This document shows, in pieces, positions 6,027 through 61,741 of a stretch of DNA of 64,000 nt. Position 1 is the first letter of the stretch. Every line of letters begins with the position of its first letter. The notes beneath the pieces were generated by a model. That model did not search any database. It saw only the letters and a list, made by a program, of their open reading frames with translations, and had not been told where the DNA came from. A program made the position numbers and the translations under genes. Source of the DNA: Chiloscyllium plagiosum (taxonomy: Eukaryota). Where the stretch lies: contig NC_057735.1 in assembly GCF_004010195.1 (NCBI RefSeq), positions 27,832,930 to 27,896,929 on the forward strand, read 5' to 3'.

Positions 6027-7644
6027 TTTTTTGAGGTATTTTAGGTGCTGGAGGTGATTTCCTTGAATTCCAGTAGCAGCAATTACTGTTTTATATGCTG
6101 TTGCATTGTTTTGGAACTTTGAAAACAAAAAGTCAAAACAACAGCAGTTTTAAAAGGGAGAAGAACAGACAAAGGAAGCACATGGTGAGGACAGTGCAAG
6201 AGATAGAGAGAGAGAGAGACAGAGAGAGAGAGAAATAGAGAGGGGGGGTGTGGGGAGGGGAGTACCTGCACGGTTACTGCCTTTGCTGGTTTTGAATTAA
6301 TGTGTCGCTGGACATCGGAGTGCATCTGGGAAAATTAACAAACAGTGAATTTCACAACTAATCTTGGAGGAACCAGTTTGGGCGAAGTTCACAACACCGA
6401 ATCAGATAAGTTAATTGTTGTTTTAAGTCAGTCCAAGAGAAAGGCTGTATTAATGAGTACGTGGGTTCTTTCTTGATTATATGTTTTTGGAGATAAGTCT
6501 CTTGATTACTTAAAATATAAGCAATAGCTACTAATTTAACCTGGTGCAGTGTTTTGTAGGGGAATAAGATGGTGTTATTTATTTTCTGGGTCATCTATAG
6601 GGTATATTTTAATTGTGGCCTCAACTCCCCGTCTTGAGACTGTGATAATCTTTCCCTGAAGCCTTTATACAAATGAATTTAGACTCTCAGCTTCAAATAA
6701 CTTCTTCAGGATTGTAACCAAACACTTCTGACTTCAACATTCTTAAACTACCTTCTTTGCTTAGGAGCAACTATTTTACACATTCAGCTTCAGCCAACTC
6801 TTCAGTGGACAAAAACTAAAGAGTTTCTTTTACCTCCAAGATATGAATGTTTCTTCAAAAAAAATCAATCACTAAGCTTGTAACACACATTGTTACTGTG
6901 TGCACTTGTAAAATCTCCCAATGTAAAAAAAATTCCTGATAGCCTCCTACAATTATCTCTCAAAAAGACTATTTAAAAATAAAACTCCATGCCAACAGAA
7001 ATAAACACCTTCAGACAGACTGAAAGCCCATACATCACTAAATCAACAGAAATAATGTACACATGAATCTCACACTTTGCATTACAATTGCAATATATAA
7101 TGTATGTTACCAGATTGATTGCACTAAATTATGCCAATGTTTTCTCTATACCCTTACCCTCCCAGTCCACCAAACCCTCCAAATGCACCCTGGCTATAAT
7201 GCAACTGCTACCCAAAACCATCACTTCAGAGGGTGTTATCATTCCCAAGGCATGTCCAAACATAACAGAGCAGCCCCTATAAGCCAGCAAGGGAAAGGAT
7301 AATTCTGAGAAAGAAAGCACCCTCTAACCGAGCCCAGGGGACACTGGCAACTTTGGAGTTCAGCAGCTAATCCCCTCTCTCAGGCACCAATGATTTTTTT
7401 TCATTGTTAAGCGAGCCCTTAGTTAATCCAATCCCACTTAACACTTCACCTCAGTATTTTCACTTAAATTCATAACTTTCAGGAACAAATGGTATTTTTA
7501 GAGAGGACAATCCATATTGTAAATCATACTGCAATATAACATGGAATTGCAGCTTTTCTAAAGGTATTCGATTTACCATTTATTATTTACTCGATGGGAA
7601 AAGATTAGTTTAAAATATTGAAATAAAGCAATATGCCAGAGGTA

Positions 7645-7844
7645 GGAGAAAGTGAGGACTGTAAATGCTGGAGATCAGAGTACAGAGTGTGGTGCTGGAA
7701 AAGCACAGCAGGTCAGGCAACATCACAGTAGTAGGAGAATCGACATTTCGGGCATAAGCCCTTCATCAGGAATAGGATTCCTGATGCAGTGCTAATGCCT
7801 ATTCTCCTGCTCCTCGGATGCTGCCTGACCTGTTGTGCTTTTCC
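7645..7844. mobile_element. Palindromic Penelope terminal-repeat insertion (family A)
   Basis: Inverted arms; flanked by a degenerate 13-nt duplication TATGCCAGAGGTA / TATGCTGGAGGTA. Confidence 0.7.
7742..7769 (-). ncRNA. Minimal hammerhead ribozyme core (family A), sense within C6orf89 intron 1
   Basis: Minus strand CTGATGA-AGGGC-TTAT-GCCC-GAAATGTC. Confidence 0.65.
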
Positions 7845-9796
7845 TATGCTGGAGGTATAAAATATATACAGAAATGAGAAAAAACTCAGCAGGTCTGGCT
7901 GCAATTATGCTAATTAAATTTACCTTATCATTCTGCAAATTAGGACATTTGTCACATAGGCTGTTCAGGAATCAGATGCGCATCCCAAAAACTGACAGGA
8001 CACTGTTCTGACCACTGTAACAATTATTGACCCGCCCTCTCCCTCTTCAGCTTTGTTTACATATCATCCCAAATTAACATACAAATGGACATCAAGATTC
8101 TCCTCAATGATGTGTTGAGTGTGGCAGTTCGGGATTTTCCTCTGCTCAAAGAATATCCTGCTGTCTGCACACGTTATATGTGATCAATAAAATTGGCATA
8201 TCTTTGACAGGATTCTCATACATCTAGAAACCTGCTTGAGGAATAATGCACAATCTTTGTTGCAGAATATATAGCCAGTTCTCTGTAAAGCACAAGGCTT
8301 CAGGAGTGCAATGATGGAGAAAGAAAAAAATGATGTTTTGAGTCTTCCTTGGACTTTCAATAAGCATTAGATTTCTTAAATAAATGGGTTACTATTGATT
8401 ACTGTAAAGAATACTGTACTGAGTTAATGCACTGCAATGTTGATAAGACATCAATTTTTAATACTATGCTAAGTTCCTAATTTTCTAAATAGGAGCCAAA
8501 GAACTACATTCCAGAAAAATGATTATTCACAAGGAAGTGGAGAAGAAATTAATAATTACAAATAAATTCAATGTCTACTCACTCCTTACTATTATTCATG
8601 GGATTAGACACCCAACATTTTTGGTTGCATATGTCAATCATTCACAAATATTAACTTCTGAATCAGTCTGGATTACTTTAGTGTGCAATCTGTTTTGTAC
8701 AAGTTCGCTGCTTTATATTTGCATCCTCCCTGTCTGTTTAAACAAAATGAATAAAAACCTCAAAAGTTCAAAATAAATTGGATGCAGTGCAAAGTTTGCA
8801 ACAATACAGGGTGCAGTCATCAAGTCAGGGCTGTGGCCCTGAAAATTGTGTAATGAGTGTCATGGCTCCAAATTAGGGATCTGTTAGTTCTGTAATGTAG
8901 TTTCAATAAAAGATTTTCAACTAAAGCAACTTGTTTCCCCCTACTGTCTTTAAATTAGTGCTGACTTGACTCCACATGCATCTCTTTCCAATTATACAAA
9001 GGTTCTTTTCTTGCTGCTATTTATGAGTTACATCTCAAAAGATTAATTTTATGACAGATTTTGAAGGGTTAAACCCAGACAGAGCTTGAGATGGCCTGTA
9101 GGGCGATGACCCAAATGCAGCTAAAATGTTCTTGAGTTCATACCTACCATCTGCCCTTTTGTATTCAAGTGTGCAATATACTACTTACTACTTTATAAAG
9201 AGAAGATACTGCATTAAAATAAAGTTAAAAACATTTGCATTTATTCTGCTAAAAACACAGGTTATTAGCCAATTGACCTTGATTTTGCAATCAGCTTCAG
9301 AACAAAAACATTCACTGAACTGGAAAAAAGCTGCCCATCAAGATCAATTTCTGTGACAGACAGTTTAAATCTGATGCCAGGCTAATGGGATTTTTGTTAC
9401 AGCAGCAATGATGCCAGCAAGCTGACAACACAAAATCACATTGAAATATTCTTACAAACTAATAAGTTAAAACTGTTCTGAACAACAACACCGGACCTGA
9501 GACATTAACTCTGCTTTCTCTGCACAATGCTGCCAGACCTAAGCTTTTCCAGTAATTTTTGTTTTTGAAATTAAAAAGTTGAATCTTCTCTTTTACCTCA
9601 AATTTTCAAATAAAGAAATAAATTATAATTGGATTTAAAGAGGCTAAACCATACCAACAAATATTCAGAAAAGTAAAATGCAGATTACATAATTGTGCAG
9701 AAATCTGATATTCCAGAAATGTAAAATCTGCCCTCAAGGCAAGCAATAGTGTTCAGTAGTAATTATGAAGTTAATATGAAGGTAATTATGAATTTT

Positions 9797-10093
9797 GGGC
9801 GGCACGGTAGCACAGTGGTTAGCACTGCTGCCTCACAGCGCCAGAGACCCGGGTTCAATTCCCGCCTCAGGCGACTGACTGTGTGGAGTTGGGACGTTCT
9901 CCCCATGTCTGCGTGGATTTCCTCTGGGTGCTCCGGTTTCCTCCCACAGTTCAATTCAGGTGAATTGGCCATGCTAAATTGCCCGTAGTTTTAGGTAAGG
10001 GGTAAATGTAGGGGTATGGGTGGGTTACGCTTCGGCGGGTCGGTGTGGACTTGTTGGGCCGAAGGGCCTGTTTCCACACTGTAAGTAATCTAA
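9797..10093 (+). mobile_element. HE1 SINE
   Basis: A/B-box tRNA head; HER1-like tail gggcctgtttccacactgtaagtaatct. Confidence 0.9.
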
Positions 10094-10627
10094 AAAGAAT
10101 CTAAAAAAAAATGCCATTGTAAACCTAGTTATATTGTATTCAACAATACCCAACTTTATTGAGGACTTAGACTTCAAACCTGTTTGTCTCATTGTATAAG
10201 TTCTCATCAGTCCACAGATATGCCTTTGACATGTGCTCTGGGGAAGCTTAAAATCATTCAGATGACCTCTAGTCCTGCATTCTTCTGTACGTGAACAGAC
10301 TCTTGGAACTGCAGTCAGTTTCAGTAATGTCGCAAACACTGACAGCTTTTCAATCATTACAACAAAATCTAGGCTACTGTCTGTATGCTAGTCCAACCTA
10401 TAAAGCACAACTGCTGGAAGAAAAACTATCAACAGAATAATACCTTTTAATTATAAGCTTCACAGAGCTGTTCAAAGGAGCTGAGATCTCTGTGGCAGGT
10501 TGGTAGCAGACCTGTGCAGAATTTTCAGTCCACCAGGATCTGCTGGCCAAACATTCCACTGTCTGTGGACTTCAACATATTCACTTCAAGCATGCTCTAA
10601 AGATCATCTGGGATCTCTCCATCAAGA

Positions 10628-10748
10628 GCAAGTGAGGACTGCAGATGCTGGAGCATCAGAGTCAAAAAGGGGGCACAGGAAAAGCACAGGTGGTCAGACA
10701 ACATTCTAGGAGCAGGATAGTCTACTTTTCGGGCATAAGCCCTTCATC
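10628..10748 (-). mobile_element. Degenerate Penelope terminal-repeat fragment (family A)
   Basis: aagtgaggactgcagatgctggag...ttttcgggcataagcccttcatc, shared with the other copies. Confidence 0.6.
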
Positions 10749-16884: not shown

Positions 16885-17645
16885 TCAGGGTCCAGCCACA
16901 GGATGGTGGGGTTGGTGGGCGTGGACCTGACGAGGGAGTCAGGGAGGGAATGGTCTCTCTGGAATGCTGATTGGGGTGGGGGGGGGGGAAATGCCCACAC
17001 CCCACTCCTGTCACCCTTCCCTGCCACCGCAGAAAGTGCACCCCACCAGCCCACACCCCACTCCTGACATCTTTCCATTGGTACATCTTCTAATGTCACC
17101 TACTGCATCTGTTGCACCAGGTGTGGTCTCCTCTACATCGGGGAGACAGGACACTTTCTGGCAGATTCTTTCAGAGAACATCTCTGGGACACCGGTACCC
17201 ATCGACCCCAATGCCCCATGGCTGAACACTTCAACTCCCCCTCTCACTCCGTCAAGGACATGCAGGTCCTGGGCCTCCTCCACTGCCTACCCCCAGGGTC
17301 TGGGGTAGAACACCTCATATTCTGCCTTGGGACCCTGTAACTACACAGGATAAACATGGATTTCAACAGCTTACTCATATCCTCTCCCCTAACATCATCC
17401 CAGCCCCGAACCTTCAACTCGGCACCACCCTTCGGACCTGTCCATCACTCCCCCTCTGACCTATCACCTTTTCTGTCACCTTCATCCACCTATCACTTTC
17501 TCAGCTACCCACCCCACCTCCCTCCCATTTATCTCTCAGCTCCGGCCCACAAGCCTCATTCCTGATGAAGGGCTTATGCTTGGAATGTCGATTTTCCTGC
17601 TCCTCAGATGCTGCCCGATCTGCTAAGCCTTTCCAGCAACACACT
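16885..17645 (+). mobile_element. Penelope-like retroelement 3' part (GIY-YIG remnant) with an inverted 5' segment
   Basis: Plus strand NVTYCICCTRCGLLYIGETG (about 17092-17150); minus strand FPPPP.SAFQRDHSLPDSLVRS linker; ends in a family A terminal repeat with a degenerate hammerhead at 17562. Confidence 0.8.
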
Positions 17646-18720
17646 CTGGACACACATACACACACTCTTACATACTCACATACTCACGCAGACCCTCTCT
17701 CACACACACGCTCTCTCTCATACACACATAGACCCCCCACACTTACACCCAGACACAGGCTTATACTCAATCACACCCACACATACTTTACCAAGCTTTC
17801 ACACATATAAACACACACTCTCTCACATACACTCACACTCGCATGCACACACTCAAATGCACATACTCTCTCTCTCTCATGCACGCACACACATATATAA
17901 GTCTATGGGGTGAATTTGTATTTGCAGAATTATATTTGCAGATTTTGCTCAAAAATGCACAATCTGCAGGCAGTCAATTCAGGCAGTCAATACATGTAAT
18001 ACTTTGTAAATTCCACTTTGGAAATAAAACCAGTCTGACTCAAGATTAGGATACAGACAAATTCTGACCTCACACTTTAATGCATTGTCTGAACTGAGAT
18101 ATCACATTTTTTTATAAAACCTTAAGTTATCTCGAGAGGTGACTTAAAAGAAGCTCTGGGATTCACATATTAATAAACTACAATCTGCAACCCATTCTGA
18201 AAGATGAAAGACTTAACATCAACCCAGGTTTACTGAAAGCTCGTGCCTCCAAATAAACCTGTTGGACTATAGCCTGGTGTTGTGTGATTTTTAACTCAAT
18301 TCAGGTTTGTTCAATATATCATTTCAGTTGCATGATACTGTAATCATTTGCTATAAATTCTGTGTCTTATGATCTTATACGCCACAATCATCTGATGAAG
18401 GAGCAGCACTCCAAAATCTAGTGCTTCCAAATAAACCTGTCAGATTCTAACCTGGTTGAGAGTGTAGTGCTGGAAAAGCACAGCAGGTCAGGCAGTGTCC
18501 GAGGAGCAGGAGAATCGATGTTTTGGGCATAAGCCCTTCATCAGGAATGATTCTTGAAGAGAGGCTTATGCCTGAAATGTCGTTTCTCCTGCTCCTTGGA
18601 TGCTGCCTGACCTGGTGTGCTTTTCCAGCATTACACTCTCGACTCTGATCTCCAGCATCTGCAGTCCTCACCTTCTCCTCCAGATTATAACCTGACGTTG
18701 CGTGATTTTTAAATTTGACC
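17646..18720 (+). mobile_element. Penelope family B 3' region (CA-rich tract, terminal repeats) with a nested family A palindrome at 18455-18680
   Basis: Degenerate CTGATGAAGGAGC at 18392; nested insert flanked by CAGATTCTAACCTG / CAGATTATAACCTG. Confidence 0.7.
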
Positions 18721-21284
18721 AGCAATAAGGTTCACCCAGTCATATATGGAAAGGCTGGCATTTGATGCCCATCCCTAGATGTATTGTACTGATTGGCTTT
18801 CTATGCCATTATCCAGAGAAACCCATTTTGAGGGTTGAAGGTTGTCATGGCCCTTCAGCAAGAATTTTAAGAGCAGGAGTACAGCTGTACAGCTGCCTCA
18901 CAACACATGACCCCATTTGAGGTCCTGACCTATTTTGGGAAGCACTATTATATTTACTTTCCAATGATTGTGCGACCAACAATCTTTCAAAATAGAACAA
19001 ACCACATCTGCCAAATAGCCATGTGCAAACTACCTTGCCAAGGATTTTTTTTTAATTGAATACCAGTTATTACCACTTATTTCTCTCTCCACAGATGTTG
19101 CCACACCTGCTGAGTTACTCCAGTATTCTTGTGTTTATTTTCCAGCAGTATTTTGGCTTTGTTTAACAGTTCTTTGACTGAAAATTTTCACCTTCTTTGG
19201 TTTGAGCAAGAAACCTCAGGATAGGATGGTTTTGTCAGTTCTTTGTGGCCTTTAGACCATTTAAAGCAATGTTTTATCTCATTGATGCAATTGTCACATG
19301 TTAACTGCAAGACTGCCAGTTGTCCATGTCCAGAACTGGCCAAACACACCTGCACAATTGTTTGAGATACGTTTCTAATCTGTGTTAGGAATGACATTAG
19401 CAATGGGGCCTGGATGATAGAAGAAACAAGATAAAGTCTTCAACTAATAAAGTGGTGGAATTTGCGAGAGTGGATTATCATCAGAATTTTTATAAAGTTG
19501 AGTATAGAGCATAATTGCTCAACGAGCCTTCCAAAACTGCTGCCAATTTCCCCTACTTGCAGCAAATGTTGAGTATGTGCAAGGGCAACAAAAATACATG
19601 AGTTTGATGCTCAGGGTGGCCATTACTAAGCAAAGAAAAGAAAACTAGCCTTATTTCCAACGTGCAAAAAATGGTGGTCCATTTGTTACTCATGTGAAAT
19701 ACAGTACACTGACCATGCAAAGGTCAGATGAGTGCTCCCACTTACATCTGAAAGGACCCAAGCTACTGTGCACATATTAGTTGTACGTATTGTCAGGGCA
19801 CCTTGCTAAATGCACATATTGGAAACGACTGCAATTTTCCTGCTTGCCAAGCCCTTAGTATTCTGATAACATTGGCTGTATCATCTCAGGATAGGAATGC
19901 AGAGCTATCAGTAGAAAGGAATGGACTGTGCCACCATGAGGCAACTGACATGCTTCAGGAGGAAAACGTGTTACCCATTGATATAGTCTAGGCTGCAGTG
20001 TTCCACAATCATAAATCATTATGCGATATAGATAATTGTAGCCAACATCAAAACCCATACAGAAAAGACAATAATCTCAGAAATACTCAATAATGAGCTG
20101 TACAATTACGGAGCATGATTCAGTTATATGTTGGTCATTTGTGCAAAGGACACATGAACAATGATTTGAGTGGTGATTGAATGGTTACCCCTATCTGTAG
20201 GTGCAGCTGACTGCCATTATAACCAGAGATAATGGATAGAGGGAAATCCTCCTTACTTGCCACAACTGCCATTCCAAATTCTGCCCTGCTCCCCTTATGA
20301 GTGCAGTGCTTCCAGTTAAACCTCTATCAAACACCCCACCCCAATCTTATCTTCTCCTCTTCCCTGCCTTTTAGCTCTTTTGTTCTAAATGCATGAGGAG
20401 AGAGATATTAAGGTTTCCAGTGACACCACATGGAGGGCCTTATCACCTGAATACCACCTTGATGTGTAATGCTGCTCCTCTGCCCTTCCAAAGGTCCTGC
20501 TCTCTGGAAACATGATGAGGCAACAGTTAAGAAGGAGATTCAAGTGAAACAAACAAACTCAAGCAGCCAAAGCAGATGGAGAAGCTGGTGAGAGGGCATA
20601 GTATACAAAGCATTACAATTAAGGGACCCCATCTATCCTTATTCACCTTTCATCCACCTTTCTGTTAGTCTGCCACTCAAGCCCACTGCTGTAGTGCAGA
20701 GGAGGTTATTCATCCTTTTCCTACATTGGACCCAATCCTTTGGCTCCTCACAAATGTCTTTTCACTTTTACGACTACTTCAGTCCAGAATTCCTGGGTAA
20801 TTAGTGAGGGCCTTCTGAGGCCACCAGCAGGAAACGGGATACTTTGCTTTGGTGGATGACCTAGCTGTGTACATGCTGTGATCTCATGTTAAATCAAAGG
20901 GTGATCTGCTGAACTGTTCATGTGCCTGGTTGTGCCTACAGGATGAAACTGTGGGGTCAGTGAACTCTTATCAATTATATCTAGTGTTGACGAATGAGGG
21001 GTCCTAATTGAATTAATCCAGTAGATCCGTTAACTATACAGACTATGGATTGAATAGAGAACCTTCTTGGTTTATATATTATAGCAATGAATTGAGAAAT
21101 GTTTCTCCTTAGTGAACTTTAAGAAAATGCTGTTCTTGAACATTTGATCAAAATTAAATAGCTCAGTTCTTACTTTTGTGAAATTGATGTTGAAAGATAT
21201 TTTTACTGATGTATATATGTTTTTGCTGTAAAAAACTGTGGTGGAATTATCCCTTCCTGGTACAGCATGATCAATTGTGAGAAA

Positions 21285-21794: not shown

Positions 21795-23090
21795 TCTTTC
21801 ATGGGATGGAGGTATCGCTGGCTGGCCAGCATTTATTGTCCAACTATAGTTGCCCTTGAGGAACTGCCTTCTTGAACCACTGCATTCTACCTGCTGTGAG
21901 TAAACCCACAATACCCATTAAAAAGGGAATTCCAAGATATTGATGAGCGACAATGAAGAAATGGTGGATTTGCAACTGTGAAGCCTGTTAAAAGTACAGG
22001 TTAAAAATTGGAACAATGTGAGTTTGCCTGTGGATGTTGAATTTTGTTGTTTGGTAAGGATAGGTGAATTTGTGATTCATAAACTTGTGAATACAGAGGA
22101 TTTGCTGTGTTTCCAAGTTAGGACAGTGTGGCTTGGAAGGGAACTTGCAAGTGGTGGTGTTCCCAAGTATCTGCTGCCCTTGTCCTTCTAAATGTGGAGG
22201 TATTGGCATTGAACTCGGGTGGACAAAGTCAAAAGTCTCACAACACCAGGTTACAGTCCAACAGGTTTATTTGAAATTACAAGCTTTCAGAGCGCTGCTC
22301 TTTTGTCAGGGGTAGTGTCTTTCTAGCTGGAAGAGATTGAGGATTTGAAAGGTGCTGTCTGAGGATCTTTGCTGAATTTCTGCAGTGCATCATATAGTTA
22401 GCACATTCTGCTGCTACTGAGCATATGTGGTGAAAGGAGTGGATGTGTGTGGATATATTGCCAATCAAGCAGGCTGCTTAAGTCAAGTTTCCTGAATGTT
22501 GCTGGATCTGCACTCATCCAAGCTAATAGGAAGTTTTCTATCACCCTCCTGACTTGTACCTTGTAGATGATGAACATGCTTTGGGCAGTCAGGAGGTGAG
22601 TTACTAACTGCAGTACTCCCAGCCTCTGACCTGCCCTTTTTGCCACTGTGTTTGTGCAATGAGTCCAGTTGAGTTTCTAGTTAATGGTAACCCCAAGGAT
22701 GTTGGGGAATTCAGAGTTAGTAACACCATTGAATGTCAATGACCAGTGGTTAGATTGTCTCTTATTCCAAATGGGCATAACCTGGCTTTGCTGTGTTATG
22801 AATGCCACAATGCTATTCAGGTGAGAATTCTAGGATCTTGACCCAACAACAATGAAGGAATGGCAATATATTTCCAAATCAGAATGGTGAGTGGCAGACA
22901 AGGGAATTTGCAGGTGATGGTGTTCCCATGTATCTGCTGCCCATATTTTTCTAGATGGAAGTGCTCGTGGGTTTGGAAGATGCTTTCTACAGATCTTTGG
23001 TGAATTTTGGCAATGTGTTGTACACATTGCTGCTACTGAGGGTCGGTGGTGGGAGGATTCAATATTTGTGGATGTGGTGCCCCTATCAAA
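21795..23090 (-). mobile_element. Old L2/CR1-group LINE fragments
   Basis: AGQRLGVLQLVTHLL...IYKVQVRRVIE..LAWMSA RT C-terminal peptide; duplicated 3' segments. Confidence 0.6.
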
Positions 23091-23629: not shown

Positions 23630-25405
23630 GTGGCTATCACTAAGGGGAAGATAGATAAATTACCTGGACCAGATGGACTACACCACAGGGTTCAGGAGAA
23701 AACAGTTGAGAAGATTGTAGAGACATTGGTGGTGATCTTTCAAGAATCACTGGAGTCAGGGAGGGTCCCAGAGGACTGGAATTGGCTGATGTAACACTCC
23801 TGTTTAAGAAGGGAAGGAGGCAGAAGACAGAAAATTATAGGCCACTTAGCCTAACCTCAGTCATTGGCAAGATTTTCGAGGCCATTATTTGGGACGAGAA
23901 TGAGGAGCATTTAGAAAGATACAGTAAAACAGAGCTGAGTCAATGGGAAAGTGAGGACTGCAAATACTGAAGATCAAAGTTGAGAGTGTGGTGCTAGAAA
24001 AGCATAGCAGGTCAGGCAGCATCCAAGGTGCAGGAGCATCGACATTTCAGGCATAAGCCCTTCATCAGGAATCAAGGGAAAGTCATGTCCGACAAATCTG
24101 TTAGAATTCTTGAGGAGGTAACGAGCAAGTTAGATAAAACAGAGCCAGTGGATGTGATCTATTTGGATTTCCAGAAGGTCTTTGACAAGGTGCTACACAG
24201 GACGCTGCTGAGATAACAGCCTATGGTATAGGGGCAAAGTACTGACATGGTTAGAGGATTGGCTGTTAGGCAGAAGGCAGAGAGTTGGAATAAAGAGATA
24301 TTTTTAGGATGTTAGCCAATACTAGTGGAGTTCTGCAACAGTCAGTGTTAGGACCACAATTATTCATGTTATACATTAACAAACTAGCTAAAGGAGTTTG
24401 CAGATAACACAAAAATAAGTGGAAGGACCAGTCATGCTGAGCAAGTGGGGAGATGCAAAAGGCACTGGACAGGCTAGGAGAGTGGGCGAAAAAATGACAG
24501 ATGGAATACAAGGTGGAGAAGTTAGAGGTTATGCACATTGATAGGAAGAACAGAGGCATAGACTATTTTCTAAATGGGGAAAGGCTTTTGACATCTGCAG
24601 CACATATGAGGCATTCTAGTTTAGGATCTTTTAAGGTTAACATGCAGATTCAGTTGGCACTTAGGAAGGTAAATGCAATGTTAACATTCAATCCAAGAGA
24701 GCTGGTTTGCAAGAGCAGGGGTGCACCATTGAGGCTGTATGCTCTAGTCAGACCACATTTGAAATATTGTGGCAGTTTTGGGTGCCATGTCTAAGGAAGG
24801 ATGTGCTCGCCATGTGGGGGATCCACATGAGATTCACAAGAATGATCCAGGGAATGGCAAATGGGACTAGATCAGTTTAGAATATCTGGTCAGTGTGAAC
24901 AAATTGGGCCGAAGAGTCTGTTTCTGTGCTGTATAACTCCATGACCCTATGAAAAGCTTGTCATAGGAGGAACAGTTGAGGGCTCTGAGTCTGTACTAGG
25001 TGGAGTTTAGAAAGGTTGGGGGGGGGTTCTCATTGAAACTTGCAGAATACTGAGAGGCCTGGGTAGTGTGGATGTGGAGAAGATGTTCAGGTAAGATTAG
25101 CACCCAAGGGCAAAGCCTCAGAGTGAAGGGATGACTCTTTAGAACTGAGATGAGGGGAATTTCTTCACTCAGATGGTGATGAATCTGTGGAACTCATTGC
25201 GACAGAAAGCTGAGGAGGTCAAGTCATTGAATTTCTTTAAGGCAGAGATACATGGATTCTTGATTAGTAAGGGGATCAAGGATTATGGTGAGATGTTAGG
25301 AGGATGAGTTGACAAATATGTCAGCCATGATTGAATGGTGAAGCAGACTCGATGGGCTGAATGGCTTAATTCTATTCCTATGTCATATGGTCTTAATGGT
25401 CTTAT
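23630..25405 (+). mobile_element. CR1 LINE with a nested Penelope family A piece (about 23945-24072)
   Basis: PGPDGLHHRV, ENYRPLSLTSVIGK, VDVIYLDFQKVFDKV. Confidence 0.88.
24041..24068 (-). ncRNA. Minimal hammerhead ribozyme core (family A)
   Basis: Minus strand CTGATGA-AGGGC-TTAT-GCCT-GAAATGTC. Confidence 0.65.
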
Positions 25406-25826
25406 TAACATTCTGCTTGCAATAAATACCATCATTATTGTACCTGCAAACTAACCTTTTGTAACTCATATAGCAGGCCACCTGGATTTCTCTGTGCATC
25501 CATGTTCTGTACTGTTGCATTCACTATTGTAATATAGAAATCAATTATGCATAGTCAGATCCACAAACATCACTGAGATAATGAGCAAATCATTTTTATA
25601 AGTGACATTATCCAGGACATTGGTGACAGCTCTCCAGTATTTCTTCAAAATGTGCCATGGGACATTTTCAACAGGGCAAAGAGGAACTCATCATCATCTG
25701 AAAGGAAGAGCCTTAAATTTGTTTTAAACTATGAATAATATTCTTGAAACAATTTAAAATGATTTAAAATGCACACTGTGTCTAACTGCAGGATGAAGAG
25801 TAATGCTTGTTCCTTGCCAAAAGTAG

Positions 25827-42005: not shown

Positions 42006-42189
42006 TTTTCCCCTAACGAGGATGTTCAGAGATGTTATTACACACCTCTGGAGCAGGTTGACCCTGAACACGAGTCTCCTGGCCTAGAGGCAGGGCCATT
42101 ACCACTTCACCACACATGCCCTTCAATACTTGATACAGATCTCTCATTAAGAGCTCGAGCCTCTTGCCCAGATCCTGAGTCTTGTCGAG

Positions 42190-42251
42190 TACGCATGCTC
42201 GGGGGGCTGGAGTTGCGCCTGCGCACTGGTGACGAAGCTCAAAATGGCGAC
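42190..42251 (+). promoter_or_regulatory. LEMD2 proximal promoter: NRF1 motif and a YY1-type motif overlapping the start codon
   Basis: TGCGCCTGCGCA at 42214-42225; CAAAATGGCG across the ATG at 42244; CpG-rich. Confidence 0.6.
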
Positions 42252-43672: not shown

Positions 43673-44965
43673 GTAAGTACATGTATATAGATTGGTTTTA
43701 GAAGTAACTCATCTTTGTTTACAACTTTTGGTTGGAGCACAAAATAAAAATATCATGAGAAATAAAATTGCTGTACAGCAAGGGATGATTTGACTCAGTT
43801 GAGGTGTAAACATAAGTAGAAATGTGAGAATTTAGTGGCTTCAGGAATTGATAAAATATAGAAAATTGAATCCCCAGAAATTTCAACTCTTTCTCTAATC
43901 CTGCCATATGCCACAATGACTTTACAACTAATTAGGTATTCCCTAATCCCTCTCCTAAAAACTGAATGATAAAAGGGGATAAAATATTCAGTAAAATCAT
44001 TTTCAACCCCCCCCCACCCCCTTATGCAATTAAAACTAGTTAGGAGACCACACAGACCTTGCGTTGTCCATTAATATGCCACTCAAAATAGAGATCAATA
44101 GATTTTTGGGTGTTGATGGACTGAGGATAGTGCAGGTAGGTGGCGATCAGCTGTGACCTTCGGGCTGAAAGGGCTGAATTACTTCCTAGACCTTATGTTA
44201 TCTTAGCAATTATGCAATCTCTGCCTCAGTCTGCTCCTTCATTAAGGCATGTTGAGAGATAGTGTAAACCACTAGTCTGCAATGTATTCCAGAAGCACTC
44301 AGCTCTCTCTCAGTAGAAGAACTGACATATATCCAGTTTGTTTCACCCTTGGATCATTTCGCCTTTCTCCTGCTCTGGTCCAATATGTTTAACTGAAGTA
44401 TATCAATAGGGATGCTATCCAGGCTGATAATTATTTTATATATCGGTGAGCCTACCCTGCTGAAAACTAATTGGATCAAATCCATTAAGAGTAGCTGAGG
44501 TCTTTTGCAGTTAGGCATCATTTTTGTAGTTCTTCTCCAAGACTACTGTATCATTCACCAAAATTGGTAACATAAAGGTGGATAACTGCCCAGAACCTGA
44601 TCAGTTTAATTTAAGTAAATGTGATGTGTTGCATTTTAGAAAGGCAAATCAGGGCAAACTTAAACACCATAAAGAACAGGGTCTTTTGTAATAATATGTG
44701 TAGCTGCAGTACGCAGTGCTTGACATTGCAAGCCTGACTGATGATCCTAAATTATTTATCAATGTAATTCCTTGCACAATCAGACTATCCAACAAATGTT
44801 CAATTGCAAATGTTATCCAGTTATCTAGTCGGTACTTTACTTGTTATGAACAGCCAAAAGGACATGCTATTTGGTAGGATCTGCCAGTCTTTGGCTTTGT
44901 TGGGCTACATACCTGGCATTACATCACTGAACTCTTTACAATATACTCACCTGTGTGATTTTCAG

Positions 44966-46015
44966 AGTTGGTGGTGAAGGCTTGTTTTTCAGACTGGAGG
45001 CCTGTGACCAGTGGAGTGCCACAAGGACCGATGATGGGTCCTCTACTTTTTGTCATTTACATAAATGATTTGGGTGCGAGTTTAAGAGGTACAGTCAGTA
45101 AGTTTGCAGATGACATCAATGTTAGAGGTATAGTCGACAGAGAAGAAGATTACCTTAGATTAAAACAGGATCTTGATCAGATGGGCCAATGGGTGGAGAA
45201 GTGGCAGATCGAGTTTAATTCCGATAAATGCGAGGTGCTGGAATTTGGGAAAGCAAATCTTAGCAGGACTTATACACTTAATGGTAAGGTCCTGGGGAGT
45301 GTTGCTGAACAAAGAGACCTTGGAGTGCAGGTTCATAGCTCCTTGAAAGTGGAGTCGCAGGTAGATAGGATAATGAAGAAGGCGTTTGGTATGCTTTCCT
45401 TTATTGGTCAGAGTATTGAATACAGGAGTTGGGAGGTCATGTTGCAGCTGTACAGGACATTTGTTAGGCCACTGTTGGAATATTGCATGCAATTCTGGTC
45501 TCCTTCCTATTGGAAAGATGTTATGAAACCTGAAAGAGTTCAGAAAAGATTTACAAGGATGTTGCCAGGGTTGGAGGATTTGAGCTATGGGAAGAGACTG
45601 AACAGGCTGGGGCTGTTTTCCCTGGAGTGTCTGAGGCTGAGGGGTGACCTTATAGAGGTTTATAAAATCATGAGGGGCATGAATAGGATAAATAGACAAA
45701 GTCTTTTCCCTGGGGTGGGAGAATCCAGGACTAGAGAGTATAGGTTTAGGGTGAGAGGGGAAAGATATAAAAGAGACCTACGGGGCAACTTTTTCACTCA
45801 GAGGGTGGTACTTGTATGGAATGAGCTGCCAGAGGAAGTGGTGAAGACTAGTACAATTGCAACATTTAAAAAGTATCCAGATGGGTATATGAATAGGAAG
45901 GGTTGAAGGGATATAGGCTGGGTGCTGGCAGGTGGGACTAGTTTGGGTTTGGATATCTGATCAGTATGGTCAAGTTGGACTGAAGGGTCTGTGTCCTTGC
46001 TGTAAATCTCTATGT
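44966..46015 (+). mobile_element. Young 5'-truncated HER1/CR1 LINE with an open 312-aa RT C-terminus
   Basis: VTSGVPQG...LFVIYINDL...SKFADD uninterrupted, followed by the 3' tail. Confidence 0.93.
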
Positions 46016-46029
46016 TTCTAGTGGCTGAC

Positions 46030-47110
46030 ACCCCTTTTGCTGCTACTGCATAGTAAGTGTTCAGCTTTTGAGGTACCTTAACTTTGGGTAGATTGGACAC
46101 TTTTCAGGACCAGGATGTTCCAATGGTTTGCATGATATATAGTGAGAAATAATCTGATTTTGGTAGCTACTATCTTGCAGGATGGCTCTGATGTGCTTTA
46201 CTTCAATGTCAAGTTTGCAAGGCAGACAAATAGTTCAGGCATATTTACCAGGTTTTGGATAAGACCAGTCTTGTAGCAGATTGAACTGCACGTATTCCAA
46301 AGTATATACGGACCAGTGAGGATAGGTTTTGGTCAACAGACGTAGAAGACACCGTGGCTGCTGAATAAATAGTATGTTGAGGAAAGGGAGTCCATTGCAC
46401 TGTTTCCTTTCAAGTGTGAATTTCAGAGCAGGATGGAGCCCCTTAAGATACGTAAGGAAATTCTTATATGCAGCTGCAGATTCAAATATAACAAACACAT
46501 CGACATATTCAAAGTATGCAAAGACTAGGGGTCCTTCGAAGACAAGATTCCCTCGGAATCCAACAAAAATATTTGCACGTACTATTTGGTGTACATGCTG
46601 TCTGTACAAGTTGTATAGTTCTTAAGTGCAATTAATACTGATTCACACAATAATGGTGAACCAGGATCGCTATAATATAGTATTGCAGTGTAGATGTCTA
46701 TAGTTGCTTCAAGTGTTACATGATGAATAGACTAGCAATGTCAAATGAGCACATGGACACTGCATTATCAGTCTGCAAGTCCTATCTGGTCTTCACAAAT
46801 GTCAAGAACTCCTTCACTATGCAAGTGGAGAACATGCTCAATATTGGTTGAAGCAATTTATTAACTGCATAGCCCAATTAATGTTGTGCAGAACTAGTTG
46901 TAGGTAAGATAAAGTAAAGAGGCATCAATATTGTGTGTCCGTGCACACAAAGGAGCAATTAGCCTTGAAGAATTACCCTATTGTATGTTGCCTGGCAGGT
47001 TCTTGCTCTTACATAAGTACAACAGTTTTTCTTTTAGCTTGCTTTTGAGTCAGGCTGTCCCTTCATGCTGAGCAGAAGATCCAGTGGGCATATTTGGACT
47101 TGTCATAAAA
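46030..47110 (-). mobile_element. Degenerate Penelope-like reverse transcriptase fragment
   Basis: ANIFVGF...YFEYVDVFVIF...FLTYLKGLHPALKFTLE...LPFLNIL matches PLE RT motifs. Confidence 0.7.
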
Positions 47111-47124
47111 AATGGTGTGCATTT

Positions 47125-48200
47125 TGTTAAAAATCACACTACTCCCAAGCTATAGTCCAACAGGTTTCTTTGGAAGCACAAGCTTTCAGAGCGCTGCTCC
47201 TTCGTCATGTAGCTAGTGGGGCTCGATTATAGGACACAATTTATAGTAAAAGATCAAAGTGTCATTCAACTGATGCGATGCATTGAATAAACTTAGATTG
47301 CTGTTAAGTCTTTAATTACTTAGAACGGGGAAGCAGTTTTCGATTAATTCTTATGTAAATTCCAGGACTTATTTCAAGTAACAGTCCCAAGATAACTTAA
47401 TATTTTATATTAGAAAAGTGAGATCTCAGCTCGCAAGGTGCATTAAAGGTGTGAGGTGAGAGTCTGTCTGTATCGCAACCTTGAGACAGGCTGCTTCTAT
47501 TTCCAAAGTGGGAATTTATAAAATTAGATTACTTACAATGTGGAAACAGGCCCTTTGGCCCAACAAGTCCACACCAACCCGCCGAAGCGTAACCCACCCA
47601 GACCCATTCTCCTACATTTACCCCTTCACCTAACACTGCGGGTAATTCAGCATGGCCAATTCACCTAACCTGCACATTTTTGGACTGTGGGAGGAAACCG
47701 GAGCACCCGGAGGAAACCTACGCAGACACGGGGAGAATGTGCAAACTCGATACAGAGAGTCGCTTGAGGCGGGAATTGAACCCGGGTCTCTGGCGCTGTG
47801 AGGCCGTAGTGCTAACCACTGTGCCACCCACAAAATGTAACATGGACTGACTGCCTACAGATTCTGTGCATTTTGAGCAAAATCGAATGTATCTGCAAAT
47901 GAAAATTCATCTCATAGACTGATGTGTGTATGTGTGTGTGTTGTGTGGGAGAGATTATGCATTGTGCTTGCTTGGTAAAGTGTGTTAGAGTGTGACGGAG
48001 TATATGCCTCTGAGAGGTTGTGCACATGTGTGTGTCTGAGAGACAGCATGCGATTGAGAGAGGGTCTGTGTGGGTGTGATTGTGTGTATAGTGTAGTGGG
48101 GTCACCTGTAGTGTGAGATGAGCCCAAGATCCTGATTGTGGCCATCCTCATGGGTACCAAACTTGACTATTAGCCTCTGCTCAGCAACATTATATTGTTG
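47125..48200 (-). mobile_element. Penelope family B 3' region interrupted by an HE1 SINE
   Basis: Reverse-complement homolog of 17650-18440, including the TG-rich tract and terminal repeat. Confidence 0.65.
47524..47829 (-). mobile_element. HE1 SINE
   Basis: Full-length reverse complement of the HE1 consensus. Confidence 0.9.
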
Positions 48201-48598
48201 TATTTTGTTGACATAGATGACTTGTTAAGGATGACTATCCTGGTCTCTTTGTTGGGGTTTACTGATTGTATGTCCATATTTGTCCTGAGGTCTTGCAATG
48301 CTATCAAACTCTCACAATGAATGTGAAAATTGATTTATTATTTGGAAACTTGCAATATGCGTGGGTCGATCAGCTTGGCATGCATTCAAAGATTTGCTGT
48401 CTTGAATGGAAACTGGTCTGTGGTGGGCTAGCTGGAAGTAGAGAAGTTCAAATTCAGCAAACATCTCTGCCTATCGTTTTGGGATGAACTCACACCAAAG
48501 CAGAAAATTAAAGAACTGCAGACATTGGAAATCAGAAATACAAACAGAAATTGCAAGAAAAACTCTGCAGGTACCATCTGTGGAGAGAAAGCATGGTT

Positions 48599-48628
48599 AA
48601 TGTTTCAGGTCTAGTGACCCTTCTTCAG
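48599..48628 (-). ncRNA. Minimal hammerhead ribozyme core (family C)
   Basis: Minus strand ggtt-CTGAAGA-AGGGTC-ACTA-GACCT-GAAACATT-aacc: 4-bp stem I; stem III mutated relative to the ACGT of the sister copy near 51005. Confidence 0.6.
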
Positions 48629-48884
48629 AACCTTCTGACACCTCAGGCGAAATCAGGTACAAGGGCAAACACATCACTTTCAGATAATGCGTGGTCAGAA
48701 AGATTTATCATATGTTTGGAGAGAGAGTTAATTAGGTTGCCAAGCCATATCTGTTTAAGTGAGTTAATCGTGCAATTGTGCTTTACATAGGTAGTGTTTA
48801 TGGTGTGGTTATCTATTGAAACAATACAGCAGCATAGATTGATCAAATGTTTAATTAATGTCTCCTATCTAAATGTCTAATGTC

Positions 48885-49946: not shown

Positions 49947-49968
49947 CTATGGTTTTCTTTCGTTTTAG

Positions 49969-50009: not shown

Positions 50010-51445
50010 GTGAGTAACTGTTTTCTTCCCAGTTATAGTTAACACTTAGATGGTAAATTTTAAAGTGGAGAATGTTATAAAAGTCACAGAAATCTAAGTT
50101 TGATATTCACTCCACTCCTTCACAATATTAGGAGGCATTGGCAATATTGAGAAGGTATAGTGGAAGTGCATAGATCTTTTTATGTAATCGAGCAAAGTTC
50201 TGTCTCCAGTCAACTCCTATATGTTTCACTGTATCAAAATAAATCTTATTTTTGGATTTATAAATGCCAATTTTTTTCCTGGATCTAATTGTTGCCAAAA
50301 ATAACTATTAAAAAGTGCCTGTAGGTGATAAATCAGTTGTAGAATTTCTCAACAGTGATCCTTGTGGAAATCTGTTTTCTTCCTTAGCACAGGAATAGTT
50401 TCTTTTTCAGAAAGAGCAGTTAGCTTATTAGCAAAACTAATGTTGTATATAGAGTGTTTTCTGAACAGTCGTAGAACTAGTATATATGTCAAATAAGATT
50501 ATTAATCAGTCTGTTTGGAAATGTTATGGCCACCTCTGGAACAGGTGGGCCTGAACCCAAACCTCCACCTGGAGGAAGGGGAACTAACAGTTTGCCATGA
50601 GACTCTTTATAGACAGATTCTACTTTGACAACTTTGTTCTATTGTTGTTCAAATTATCTTGTAGTAAATGAAGTCTATTAGACAGTTTAAAGCTAAAAAC
50701 CTAAAATCATGAAAGCGTTTGAATGAATAAGCAATGTATTTTAAGTGATTATGACACCCTATCAGTGGTTGGCAGTTGCAGTATTATGTGGCAAATTCAG
50801 ATCATCATTAATCTAAATTGAAGGCTTAGTTATCCATTTCACAGATCCACTAGACCCACAATGCTCTACTGCTGACCAGATATCAATGATATGTGTATGT
50901 TGACTTGTACTGTGTACCTACATGATCAAAAATGTGAAGCCAAAACTGAAATTGCTGGAAAAACTCAGCAGGTCTGGCAGTATCTGCAGAGAGAAATCAG
51001 AGTTAACGTTTTGAGTCGGGTGACTCTCCCTCAGAATCTTCTCTTCTGTTTTGGTTTCTGATTTACAGCATCCGCAGTTCATTCAGTTTTTAGGTTGTCC
51101 AAAGATCTGAACATCCACACACAGAGGTTTTCCAATGCATTAATAACACACTAGAGGTCACTGTTCTGTACTCAATGTGTAGCGCATAATACCAGATGGA
51201 ATAACTGGTAAAACGGTATTTGCAGTATAAAATGAAACTGAGGCATTATGCATTACTTTATTTGTTTCTGAAAAAAGATAGGCTAGATTAAGTAATTTGT
51301 GACTGTAATCACACCAATATATGCTTGATAAAATACAAAATATTTCATTAATTAGTTTAGCATTTCTTAGTTTTGGATTTATGTTACATTTCAAGCGTTA
51401 TTTTTATTAATACTTTAATTTCATTTATCAACTTTTTTTTTCTAG

Positions 51446-51521: not shown

Positions 51522-53277
51522 GTGAGTTGAAGGATAATCACAAAGGGGAACGTATTCTTGCTGTAAATTACTAGCTACAAAAAATGTAAACAGCTAAGGA
51601 AAATACGAAAGATCCACAAAATTCAGTTTAACACGTACCATAATACTGCTTTTCAATGGGAGAATAAATTCTTTAATGTAATCAAAATTGTGGATAATGT
51701 ATTGAACATTTTAAAGATTGCATTCAGTAGATTTTTGCCAAGTAAAGATTCTGCAAAAAGGCAGCAAAGGGGAGATGAGGTAGAAGATCAGCTATGATCT
51801 TTTCAATAACTAAGCAAACTTGAGGGATTGCATAATGTAACCTAGCTCATAATCTTTGCATTCAAATCAGCTTAATTCAAGAGGATATTTAAAGCATTCC
51901 TAATGAAGGTAAAGTGTATAAATAATTCTGGCATAATCAATGTTTTTATGTAAAATTCTTCATTTGATTCAATCACCCTGCATCTTTGTACTTAACCCTC
52001 TTAAACTCAGTCTGGTTTTAGTTTTTCAGCAATTTCAAATGCTATACTTATATCACGATAACCAAGAAATGTAAGCAGGCAGTGTATCACTGCGTTGCCT
52101 CTTGTCAGTCACAGGTAGCTTGAGAGTCAGAGCGATGACTTATGTTTCTCTATAGGAATAGAAGCAGCTGTTCAATTATTTTCCACACCATTGCATGGAT
52201 TGTAAAATCTCTAGGATTACATGCATTCATGAGAAATTGAGGTTATTCTTCAGTCGCTACTCAGGAGAAGAAAAAAACAACAACAAAAATCTGTTTTTTG
52301 GTTGAACCGTTTTGGATATTAGTTCTGTAAGTGCTAAAGATAGTGTTAACTTCTGCTGTATTGAATGATTGGAGATGAGTGTTATTTTGATCCAAACTCC
52401 AGGAAATGGTCAAGCAAAGTTTATTTTCCAAAACGTTTTTGATTTGGGGAAGGTTCCATTAGACTGGAATACACCAAATGTGATTATTTTATTCAGAAGG
52501 GGAGGAGACAGAAAACAGTAAGTTACAGACCAGTTTGTTTTGATAGCTGCCATACGGAAAATGTTAGAAACTTTAACTAAAGACATTATAGCGAGGCACT
52601 TAGGTAAGTTCAATGTAATCCAGCAGAGTTAGTATGGTTTTGTGAAAGGTAAATCATCTTTAACCAATCTATCAGCGTCTTTGAGGAAATAACACATTCA
52701 GTGTAAGGGTGACTTGGGTATATAGTGTACTTCAATTTAAAAAAATAATTTGATAAGGTGCCACAGAAAGTAGAAGTTCGTGGTGTAGAGGGTAGCATGT
52801 TGGCATGGATAGAGGATTGGCTGGATATCAGGAAGTAGAGGGAAGGCAAAAATGGGTCATTTTCAGATTGACACATTATAATGAGTGTTGTGCCACAGAA
52901 AGTGGTGCTGGAATCTTTACTGATTCCAATTTATTTCAATGACTTGGATGAAGAGATTGAAGATATAGTTGCTACATTTGTTGATATCAAGAAGACAGGT
53001 TGAAAAGTAAGTTACAAAGAGGACATAAGGAGGCTACGAAAAGATATGCGTTTAAGTAGTGGGCAAATAGAATATAACATGGGGGAAAAATGAATGTACT
53101 TCTGCTTTGGCAGAAAGAATAAAAAGCATTTTGTCTAAATGGTGAGAGATTGCAGAACTTTGCTATGCAGAGATAGCTTAATGTCCTGGTATATGAATTG
53201 CATAAGGCGAGTGTGCATGAATATGTGAAACCTCATACAATATTATCATTTATTGTGGAGTGCGTTGAATAAAAAAG

Positions 53278-53466
53278 TTAAAAATCACACAACACCAGGT
53301 TATAGTCCAACAGGTTTAATTGGAAGCACACTAGCTTTCGGAGCGACGCTCCTTCATCAGGTGATTGAAAGCCAGTGTGCTTCCAATTAAACCTGTTGGA
53401 CTATAACCTGGTGTTGTGTGATTTTTAACTTTGTACACCCCAGTCCAACACCGGCATCTCCGAATC
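53278..53466. mobile_element. Young palindromic Penelope family B insertion nested in a CR1 LINE
   Basis: Inverted arms of about 65 nt; perfect 13-nt TSD TTGAATAAAAAAG at 53265-53277 and 53467-53479. Confidence 0.8.
53332..53360 (-). ncRNA. Minimal type I hammerhead ribozyme core (Penelope family B)
   Basis: Minus strand cac-CTGATGA-AGGAGC-GTC-GCTCC-GAAAGCTA-gtg: intact core boxes, 5-bp stem II, palindromic AGCT stem III, 3-bp stem I. Confidence 0.8.
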
Positions 53467-54209
53467 TTGAATAAAAAAGGTAGAGATGTCTATACAGATC
53501 ATTGAGAGACCACATCTAACTATTGTGTACTGTATTGGTCAACCTATTTAAGGGGGGATATAAATGTTTTGGAAGCAGTTCAGAGAAGGTTTGCTAGTCT
53601 AATACCGGGAATGGCTACATTATGTTATGAGGAAATACTGGACAGGCTATGCTTACATCTACTGGAATTTAGAAGAAAAAGACGTGACTTGATTAAGACA
53701 ATAGATCCTGAGGGGTCTTTGACGAGGTGAATGTCAAGATGATGTTTCCTCTTAATGGAAAATCAAGAACTAGGGTCACTGGTTAAAAATCAGACATGAG
53801 ATGAAATTTCTTCTCCCAGTTTCACAAATCTGTGGAACAGTCTTCCTGAGAAAGTGTTAGAAGAGGCATCCTTGAATATTTTAAAGACAGAAATGGATAG
53901 CTTCTTGTTAAGAGAGGTTATCTGGGATAGTGTGGATCTGGATTTGAGGTTATTAAATGGTAGAGAAGACCCTGGGAGCCTAGTGGCCTATTTCTGCTGT
54001 TCATACATTTACAACACAAAATGCAACTCACTTGAAAACTTGGGAGGCAGTAAACATGGGCTTTGCCTATCATGTTCTGCTTGTTAAATGTGTTGTTCAA
54101 ATAACTAATGGTACTGTTTAAATAATTTAAGTACAAATGTTTATGTAAAAGGATATGGGATAAGCTATTTGTTGGGCATTTTCCCTGGTGCTTCAAAGGA
54201 TAGGGTGAA

Positions 54210-56895: not shown

Positions 56896-56992
56896 AATGT
56901 GGAATGTTTGAATCTTGAATGTACTTAGAGATTCATTTTTAGTTACAAAGTGCATGATTGGAGTTAAACAATTTAATTTTTTTGACTTGTAG

Positions 56993-57069
56993 GTGAGTTT
57001 GAGTGTGGATCTGAATATCTGCTGAAGACCAAATGTGTTCCAGTTGCTGATGTACAGAGACATTTAGCA
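56993..57069 (+). CDS. LEMD2: LEMD2 exon 4
   Basis: 77 nt, EFECGSEYLLKTKCVPVADVQRHLA versus human [25 protein letters not shown]; |GTAAGT. Confidence 0.92.
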
Positions 57070-60500: not shown

Positions 60501-60921
60501 GTGTGCAGCCTAGATGGTGATTGCGCTCTAAAGCACGTGTAAAAGCTGATGTAAGAGTTTGATTGGTGGCTTTGGAGGCTTGGTTTATCAATCAATATTT
60601 ACCTCTCCCATAGCATATGACTTCCCTATTCTGATAATGACGCATGACCACCAGCACATTTCACATACTGTTTTTCTTCATTTTTATTAAATGTTGATTT
60701 TTGTTATTGAAATTGTAAGGTTCAGTAACAGGAATATCTTGTCCTCAAATTGTTTCTAGATTTGACTCTTAAATACATTCTGAAATTTTCTTTTAAAGTT
60801 TCAGCACCATCTTGATGGTGGAAAAATTAAACTTGTGCAGTGATGTGAAGCATAATAGCTTGAATATTTTTTTAAAATGTCCTTATTTATATTTGTTTAC
60901 TCACTAATATTGCTTTCCCAG

Positions 60922-61001
60922 ACTAATAATATACCTAATCTAGAAAAATTTAATGAGGCACTTCAATGGATCATTCAGAGTACTCGAGACTTTGGGATTA
61001 G
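60922..61001 (+). CDS. LEMD2: LEMD2 exon 5
   Basis: 80 nt, TNNIPNLEKFNEALQWIIQSTRDFGIR versus human KFEAALTWILSSNKDVGIW; canonical splice sites. Confidence 0.92.
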
Positions 61002-61214
61002 GTGAGTTGTTTTCTTGTAAATTCTAGCTTAAATTAATGAACAGTATTTGAATGCATAAAGTAGAACATAACCTCCAGTCATTGTGCATGGAATTCTGTT
61101 ACCTTCCTCTCACTGTGTTGTTGACAATTCTTGAAAAGTTTAAAACAACAGGTACTTGAGACACAATTCTTGAGCATTTCTTGACCAGATTTAAAATGGT
61201 ACTTGCAATTTTTG

Positions 61215-61741
61215 AGAAGATTTGCGGCCTAGGTTGTGGTTCAGGTTGGAAGTTTCTGGCAGTTTCTGATAAGACAGGATGTTGCTGCTGTGATTGGCTG
61301 AGACATTTGCCAGTCAGTTCTTAAATTAATTGGTGTATAAAAAGATGATCTTACTTGGCAATGAAGGGTTAGCTGAACTGGTAGATTTGTCCTCCGATGT
61401 TCGTCACCATGTGAGGTAACATCATCAATGAGCCTCCATTGAAGTGCTGGCATTTTGTCCCACTTTTTATTTATGTGTCTTGGTATGTTGTGGTGGGTGA
61501 TATCATTTCCGGTTATTTTTCTGGGAGGTTGGTAAATGAGGTCCAACAGTGCTTCAATGAAGGCTCACTAATGATGTTATCTCACATAGTGATGAAACGT
61601 CGGAGAACAAATTTACCAGCTCAGCTAACCCTTCATTGCCAAGTAAGATCATCTTTTTATACACCAATTAATTTAAGAACTGACTGGCAAATGTCTCAGC
61701 CAATCACAGCAGCAACATCCTGTCTTATCAGAAACTGCCAG
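61215..61741. repeat. Long inverted repeat around a Penelope family D palindrome in LEMD2 intron 5
   Basis: Arms about 61256-61450 and 61547-61741; degenerate hammerhead CTAATGA...GAAACGTC at 61568-61601. Confidence 0.85.

Follow-up and report, generated by a model that had tools for sequence, protein, structure and literature searches.

Abundant hammerhead motifs in the Chiloscyllium plagiosum genome as probable 3′ end modules of Penelope-like retrotransposons

The hammerhead motifs described here are located in a 64,000-nucleotide stretch of the genome of the shark Chiloscyllium plagiosum (contig NC_057735.1, positions 27,832,930 to 27,896,929 of the forward strand), hereafter called the window, and are grouped into four families, A to D. 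We consider it very likely (probability about 0.9) that they belong to a 3′ end module, composed of a pseudo-long terminal repeat (pLTR), the hammerhead and a tail, of several endonuclease-bearing Penelope-like retrotransposons (PLEs), and that the inserted copies decay neutrally, with no need for a host function. The association of hammerheads with PLE ends has already been published, although an initial annotation of the window did not mention it. The kind of motif is known, and what is new is its count, a test for neutral decay, and the geometry of the copy start sites.

Parent elements

A decayed GIY-YIG endonuclease (17068-17337) is followed in the window by a pLTR and then by the family A motif at 17562. 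The Pfam GIY-YIG match to this stretch (E value 0.1) falls short of the cut-off, and a relative in the fetched locus L125 passes it. A first look at the genome gave 92,677 candidate relatives of this endonuclease. In 19 of 30 fetched loci an A motif is found 402-649 nucleotides downstream of the endonuclease motif, and in this count the window's own A locus, with its mutated core, is scored as negative. For family B, an endonuclease was found upstream of one of 12 loci. This endonuclease has 36,191 candidates in the genome, and the B motif is located 661-1356 nucleotides downstream of it in 22 of 30 fetched loci. Family D motifs have a sense-strand endonuclease 373-395 nucleotides upstream in four of 25 loci.

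The tail model of family C matches all 32 A tails examined, and the A model matches 18 of 25 C tails (best E value 3e-11). Tails of families B and D match no other family. Thus, what had been described as four unrelated families is reduced to three unrelated groups by the common tail of A and C, and family C is an older relative of A. The A-like tail also suggests what the parent of family C might be. The pLTR is located downstream of the PLE open reading frame (ORF) in families A, B and D and, judging by the tail shared with A, probably also in C.

A zinc finger in the linker separates the Neptune and Nematis clades from Penelope and Poseidon (PMC8557442). The A and B parents carry such a linker zinc finger (CX4CxxC), and so have the CX2-5CxxC linker before a C-terminal CCHH GIY-YIG domain that is characteristic of Neptune and shared with Nematis. 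The finger is missing from the translated D parents (L162, L171 and L172), whose C-terminal GIY-YIG domain has the arrangement of Penelope and Poseidon elements. By this linker rule, the A and B parents, which carry two different GIY-YIG genes, appear to be Neptune-type, with Nematis also fitting the linker, and the D parent Poseidon-type. Regions resembling a reverse transcriptase (RT) and an endonuclease are both found upstream of the A motif in locus L124.

A decayed and frameshifted RT-like stretch is also present in the window (about 45950-46950, minus strand). It has no Pfam match and 128 scored relatives (about 40-60% identity), and its motifs are of the Penelope type. This stretch adjoins the B copy at 47108, with no link to family B found. 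Locus L118 (G000:C20:53085500-53091500) carries a PLE inside a long low-complexity satellite that is open in several frames.

Structure and covariation

All four families are predicted to form minimal type I hammerheads with a short stem I, a stem II of 4-6 base pairs, and a palindrome that replaces helix III. (Residue numbering agrees with PMC4209133.) Each family type has the core CUGANGA...GAAA...UH, one unpaired base after A9, and a G10.1-C11.1 pair. The palindrome is ACGT in A, C and D and AGCT in B (ACGU and AGCU in RNA), and the predicted cut triplets are GUC (A and D), CUA (B) and GUU (C).

The initial annotation noted that the stems differ in sequence among families yet still pair, and this holds for stems I and II. 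The patterns used to pick loci fix stem II, so its pairing is preset in those loci. Stem I, which had been overlooked, was counted in loci chosen on the core and stem II alone. It pairs in all four families and covaries within family D. Its letters are AUUC with GAUU or GAAU in A, CAC with GUG in B, AGUU with AACU in C, and UCA with UGA or CCA with UGG in D, giving four pairs in C, three in B and D, and three of four in A, where one position is a U.U mismatch. The first two pairs are formed in 42 and 43 of 45 A loci, in 11 of 12 B loci each, in 23 of 25 C loci each, and in 24 and 18 of 25 D loci. The D alignment holds 24 of the 25 loci (L168 overlaps L167), and its pair 2.3-1.3 is UA in 14 rows, CG in eight and GC in one, a pattern reached by none of 500 shuffles. 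Because the covariation sits between families and subfamilies, it records selection on master elements.

An extra D-like subfamily (L058, L074, L085 and L185) has another upstream arm and stem II, and is frequent in random samples. A further stem II variant with an A/C-like tail is found in L032.

Motifs in the window

Profiles built from genome loci identify 24 pieces in the window, of which 16 span the core region. A strict scan, which demands CUGANGA, a stem II of at least four pairs, and GAAA, gives five matches, compared with a mean of 0.17 and a maximum of one in 30 dinucleotide shuffles. The 14 hammerhead sites named in the initial annotation are all on members of the four repeat families. 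However, its statement that the core and the ACGT/AGCT palindrome are kept fails at most of them, with nine of the 14 broken. All 11 core bases and H17 are present at five sites (7746, 24045 and 25927 in A, 53336 in B, and 48603 in C), and the palindrome is retained together with the full core at just two of these (25927 and 53336). G12A is found at 18520 (A), 18392 (B) and 51005 (C), and C3 is altered at 47185 and 61400. Single core changes are G5A at 61568, G8A at 22285 and A13G at 17562, and the core at 10725 is truncated. The copies and parent remnants are as follows.

7642-7776, minus strand: family A hammerhead and tail, core intact, palindrome ATGT; an inverted partner with the core deleted is at 7775-7844 (plus)
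9489-9571 (plus), 19083-19139 (plus) and 40271-40344 (minus): extra family C pieces from the profile census, not named in the initial annotation
10618-10748, minus strand: family A, 5′ part of the core missing; 7-bp target-site duplication at 10618 and 10751
17068-17337, plus strand: decayed GIY-YIG endonuclease, the ORF end of the A parent, with two cysteines between GIY and YIG
17390-17647, plus strand: pLTR of the A parent (start approximate) leading into a family A hammerhead and tail; C3 at 17562, A13G
18235-18732, plus strand: family B partial tandem interrupted by an A insertion; tail at 18235-18309, pLTR with TATAAA and a G12A hammerhead at 18382-18460, tail resuming at 18683-18732
18450-18685: head-to-head inverted family A pair, 18450-18552 (minus) with G12A and 18545-18685 (plus) with C3U; 7-bp duplication at 18448 and 18688
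22190-22311, minus strand: family B copy, G8A
23941-24075, minus strand: family A copy with an intact core, C11.1U and the palindrome ATGT
25815-26119, minus strand: family A composite made up of a young copy that is fully intact (25815-25956, with its cut predicted to fall between 25923 and 25922), a truncated tandem copy (25955-26041, minus) and an inverted tail (26039-26119, plus)
47108-47315, minus strand: family B copy with part of the pLTR, C3A; upstream end approximate
48508-48636, minus strand: family C copy with an intact core, a stem I of 4 bp and the palindrome ACAT
50929-51089, minus strand: family C copy, A9G and G12A; inverted tail piece at 51044-51089 (plus)
53265-53479, both strands: family B head-to-head unit with an intact hammerhead on the minus strand (C3 at 53360), an inverted arm, a tail extension of about 34 nucleotides on one arm, and a 13-bp target-site duplication (53265-53277 and 53467-53479)
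61256-61741, both strands: family D head-to-head inverted unit with arms 82% identical; both hammerheads broken, 61368-61438 (minus) and 61559-61629 (plus)

An inverted partner accompanies 21 of 52 A copies and 10 of 14 B copies, and six of the 52 A copies have a tandem partner (same strand, within 200 nucleotides). These insertion shapes, which are short, inverted or partially tandem with target-site duplications, fit PLEs.

An Rfam search of the window gave no hammerhead hit at the gathering threshold, and the sequence surrounding the two intact copies (25927 and 53336) matched no hammerhead family with an E value of 10 or less. The motifs lack both the Rfam score and the stable helix III of canonical hammerheads, and the absence of an Rfam match would be expected for motifs without helix III. 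A covariance model of family D recovered the two D copies of the window and no other significant match. The inverted units at 25955-26119 and 53265-53473 have sub-gathering matches to generic microRNA hairpins in Rfam, and such units could give rise to false microRNA calls or to double-stranded RNA.

Genome-wide abundance

Exact family cores are found genome-wide in 34,833 (A, one loop variant), 18,482 (B), 192 (C) and 1,066 (D) examples, or 54,573 in sum, and reversed controls gave none for any family. A generic core pattern, which sets no condition on pairing and includes some sites twice, has 174,295 matches versus 1,363 in the control. We also ran the strict scan on a sample of 386,087 called bases, drawn as 40 stretches of 10 kb placed at round coordinates, and obtained 31 matches, about three of which look like chance, versus 0-2 in five shuffles. 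The resulting density is 80 per Mb, and the window, at 79 per Mb, is typical. Profiles identify 124 pieces in the same sample, of which 81 span the core, and on the assumption of 3.4 Gb of called bases this extrapolates to about 0.7 million core-spanning copies (0.57-0.89 million). The genome-wide motif scan proposed in the initial annotation therefore finds a density elsewhere that is far from negligible, with family types that keep the core and paired stems. The suggestion that shark genomes are exceptionally rich in hammerheads is borne out for this genome, which is very rich, but its plural rests on one genome.

Cervera and De la Peña 2014 reported about 9,000 hammerheads in Xenopus and about 4,000 in coelacanth, numbers that were called remarkable (PMC4209133). 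The counts given here are 6 to 40 times the largest of these, with search rules that differ. No shark count appears in the portions of the literature searched, and Lunse et al. 2017 and the bioRxiv supplements may hold some.

Decay of inserted copies and RNA evidence

The residue G12 acts as the general base of the hammerhead (PMC6155905). In these motifs G12 forms a CpG with C11.1, and deamination gives G12A or, on the other strand, C11.1U. The first change is expected to be inactivating, whereas the second gives a G.U pair with G12 retained. In the same A context, the genome carries 3,320 examples of G12A versus 3,264 of C11.1U (binomial p 0.50). Because these counts are nearly equal, there is no sign of bulk selection on inserted copies for either the retention or the loss of G12. 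The suggestion that individual motifs are functional is disfavoured by this match between G12A and its mirror change and by the nine broken sites of the window.

A single-cell poly(A) library, which may come from a related species, gave 2,434 reads on 25640-25962, with about 2% of the run covered. The molecule ends do not pile up and the depth is smooth over the predicted cut, but this type of library captures cleavage ends poorly. G12A is carried by 11.0% and 9.4% of reads, depending on orientation, versus 8.6% in DNA contigs. No reads mapped from a second run (X21). The RNA reads fit mostly uncleaved passenger copies, in a library that is ill-suited to the question. Loose read ends at 25953-25954 were dropped as evidence, since the window copy itself ends there.

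Copy start sites and a proposed mechanism

Of the A copies, 30 of 52 start within 12 nucleotides upstream of C3, as do 11 of 14 B copies, and only four A copies start 13-50 nucleotides upstream. Starts within two nucleotides of the cut site are found in four of 79 A, none of 26 B, one of 33 C and none of 10 D copies. Longer B copies carry TATAAA 36-40 nucleotides upstream of C3 in 29 of 36 rows. A TATA-like box is located 45-50 nucleotides upstream in 15 of 25 D rows, and at 31 nucleotides in one of 25 C rows. Family A has TTTATCT about 32-38 nucleotides upstream of C3 (by eye) and TCATTC directly before C3, which fits the initiator consensus. Thus, the A and B copy starts lie about 30 nucleotides downstream of the boxes. 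A similar clustering of D 5′ ends (six of 10 at 12 nucleotides or fewer) was rejected, as the copies belong to a subfamily absent from the references. Promoters in pLTRs are known (PMC6765202, PMC3846280), and those in Drosophila are TATA-less (PMC2377424).

We suggest that the motif lies between the pLTR transcription start and an internal site, at the tail, where reverse transcription begins. Short copies would then be run-off cDNAs that extend from the tail to the transcription start, and would be made from short transcripts that were not cleaved. In master elements, cleavage by the motif might require a dimer or the element's own protein, by analogy with published PLE work, and inverted units would bury the hammerhead in a long hairpin. 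With this start-site geometry, almost every insertion, however short, would carry a hammerhead. Together with very large PLE amplification, the geometry could account for the motif density with no host function needed.

Hammerhead cores may be more abundant in this genome than in any other known (about 50-80 intact cores per Mb, in addition to the extrapolated core-spanning copies), and the copies may be fossils of the PLE cycle, a cycle in which the hammerhead is the first structure of a transcript driven by a TATA box or initiator in the pLTR and the short insertions are run-off cDNAs from uncleaved RNA. This proposal is tentative, and we judge it slightly more apt to be wrong than right. 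A competing explanation is that the 5′ clustering reflects preferential truncation, or a template switch, at the edge of stem I.

Comparison with known systems

The minimal hammerheads of PLEs described in PMC4209133 are, like families A to D, of type I with no real helix III and a palindrome at 15.2-16.2. They likewise share the additional base after A9 and the G10.1-C11.1 pair, fall into several consensus families per genome, and are found mostly as single dispersed copies, with some opposite-strand pairs and few in full elements. Stem I is 4-5 bp in that study, and the stem II of families A to D is shorter than the 7-8 bp of Schistosoma. The host group of the present genome is not found in its main text or in the two supplement files searched.

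The Anolis Poseidon element PAc also has a hammerhead at the pLTR-ORF junction, with an optional tail (Frangieh et al. 2024, PMC11167929). Reverse transcription of PAc starts inside the RNA, about 110 nucleotides into the ORF, at the tail. Uncleaved RNA is its main template, and no RNA-seq ends were found at the cut site (PMC11167929). Activity and start sites were measured for PAc but are deduced here, and the A and B parents differ in being Neptune-type. The Neptune and Penelope/Poseidon elements of Craig et al. 2021 (PMC8557442) share with those described here a C-terminal GIY-YIG domain with CCHH cysteines, a linker zinc finger that is present (as in A and B) or absent (as in D), 5′ truncation, inverted or partial-tandem units, and a tail of 30-40 bp. 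Animal non-LTR retrozymes likewise have type I hammerheads derived from PLE pLTRs, but are organized as tandem arrays with at least two intact motifs, of which the window has none (bioRxiv 10.64898/2026.07.22.740005; PMC7761336).

Alternative explanations

One alternative is that the copies are non-autonomous tandem retrozymes, in which short units with two hammerheads are excised, circularized and spread by themselves. The window does contain a 95-bp tandem in 1.9 copies (25860-26041), six A copies have a same-strand partner, and non-LTR retrozymes derived from PLEs are reported in one chondrichthyan (bioRxiv 10.64898/2026.07.22.740005). However, the upstream unit of that tandem (25955-26041) lacks CUGA, a tandem repeat search revealed no other hammerhead array in the window, and the window has no series of at least two adjacent tandem units with a complete hammerhead in each. 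Single or inverted copies predominate, and the cut site shows no accumulation of starts of the kind expected from circle junctions. We therefore regard this explanation as improbable. Even less probable, and in our view quite unlikely, is that the shark has domesticated many copies and keeps them active for RNA processing, like the intronic hammerheads of amniotes. At least 54,573 exact cores would be ample raw material for this, and family-like reads are present in the poly(A) run (2,434), but the equality of G12A and C11.1U genome-wide, the nine broken sites, and reads that span the predicted cut with neither an end pile-up nor an enrichment of G12A argue against it, even though the library is weak for cleavage ends. 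A few domesticated copies would escape such bulk counts.

The proposal that the sites are chance matches, or a short interspersed nuclear element (SINE) family that merely resembles the core, might draw on the lack of a hammerhead match in Rfam. It is already refuted by the shuffles and by the pairing of stems I and II with different letters in each family, and we give it almost no weight; the controls are near zero, the motifs are linked to GIY-YIG genes, and no tRNA gene was called in the window.

Several observations weigh against the assignment to 3′ end modules of PLEs with neutral decay. No endonuclease is found upstream of family C in any of 25 loci, Pfam scored no RT in the L124 ORF, and no intact full-length element was found among eight A loci with long ORFs and six B loci, where the assembly has gaps. 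The RT and clade calls are derived from sequence motifs and the linker rule, not from a tree. The dominant A subfamily (39 of 45 loci) has the U.U mismatch at the third pair of stem I, and the hammerhead stem I is missing from the folds predicted for an A copy, both by itself and as a homodimer; single-strand folding says nothing about motifs of the dimer type. The covariation in D probably reflects a single subfamily split that is counted repeatedly. Finally, non-CpG core positions diverge by 2.9% versus 8.0% for the tail in sampled A copies, a gap that can be explained by subfamily drift of the tail and by profile trimming and is not a clean test.

Neighbouring features

A 516-codon frame (42151-43701, plus strand) encodes an N-terminal LEM domain (Pfam E value 8e-16) and has a hydrophobic stretch near its end. 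Within this frame, a tandem repeat of 36/72 nucleotides (42690-43371) encodes about ten 12-mers rich in Ser, Tyr and Asp. The frame resembles the large first exon of a gene for a LEM-domain inner nuclear membrane protein. Fragments of the 3′ ends of long interspersed nuclear elements (LINEs) are located at 819-1292, 5227-5673, 44959-45906 and 62908-63513, with an RVT_1 match for the third, and all four are of the CR1/L2 type.

Implications

Annotators should treat these motifs as the ends of Penelope elements and not as host ribozymes. The in vivo role of PLE hammerheads is still called a mystery in PMC7761336. The abundance of copies in this genome sharpens bulk tests, such that the G12 comparison can tell apart selection acting on master elements and selection acting on host copies, and the 5′ ends of copies can reveal where the template RNA started and whether it was cut. 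If the proposed cycle is correct, cleavage would serve only tandem read-through transcripts, and the in vivo role of PLE hammerheads would become testable on hundreds of thousands of dated junctions.

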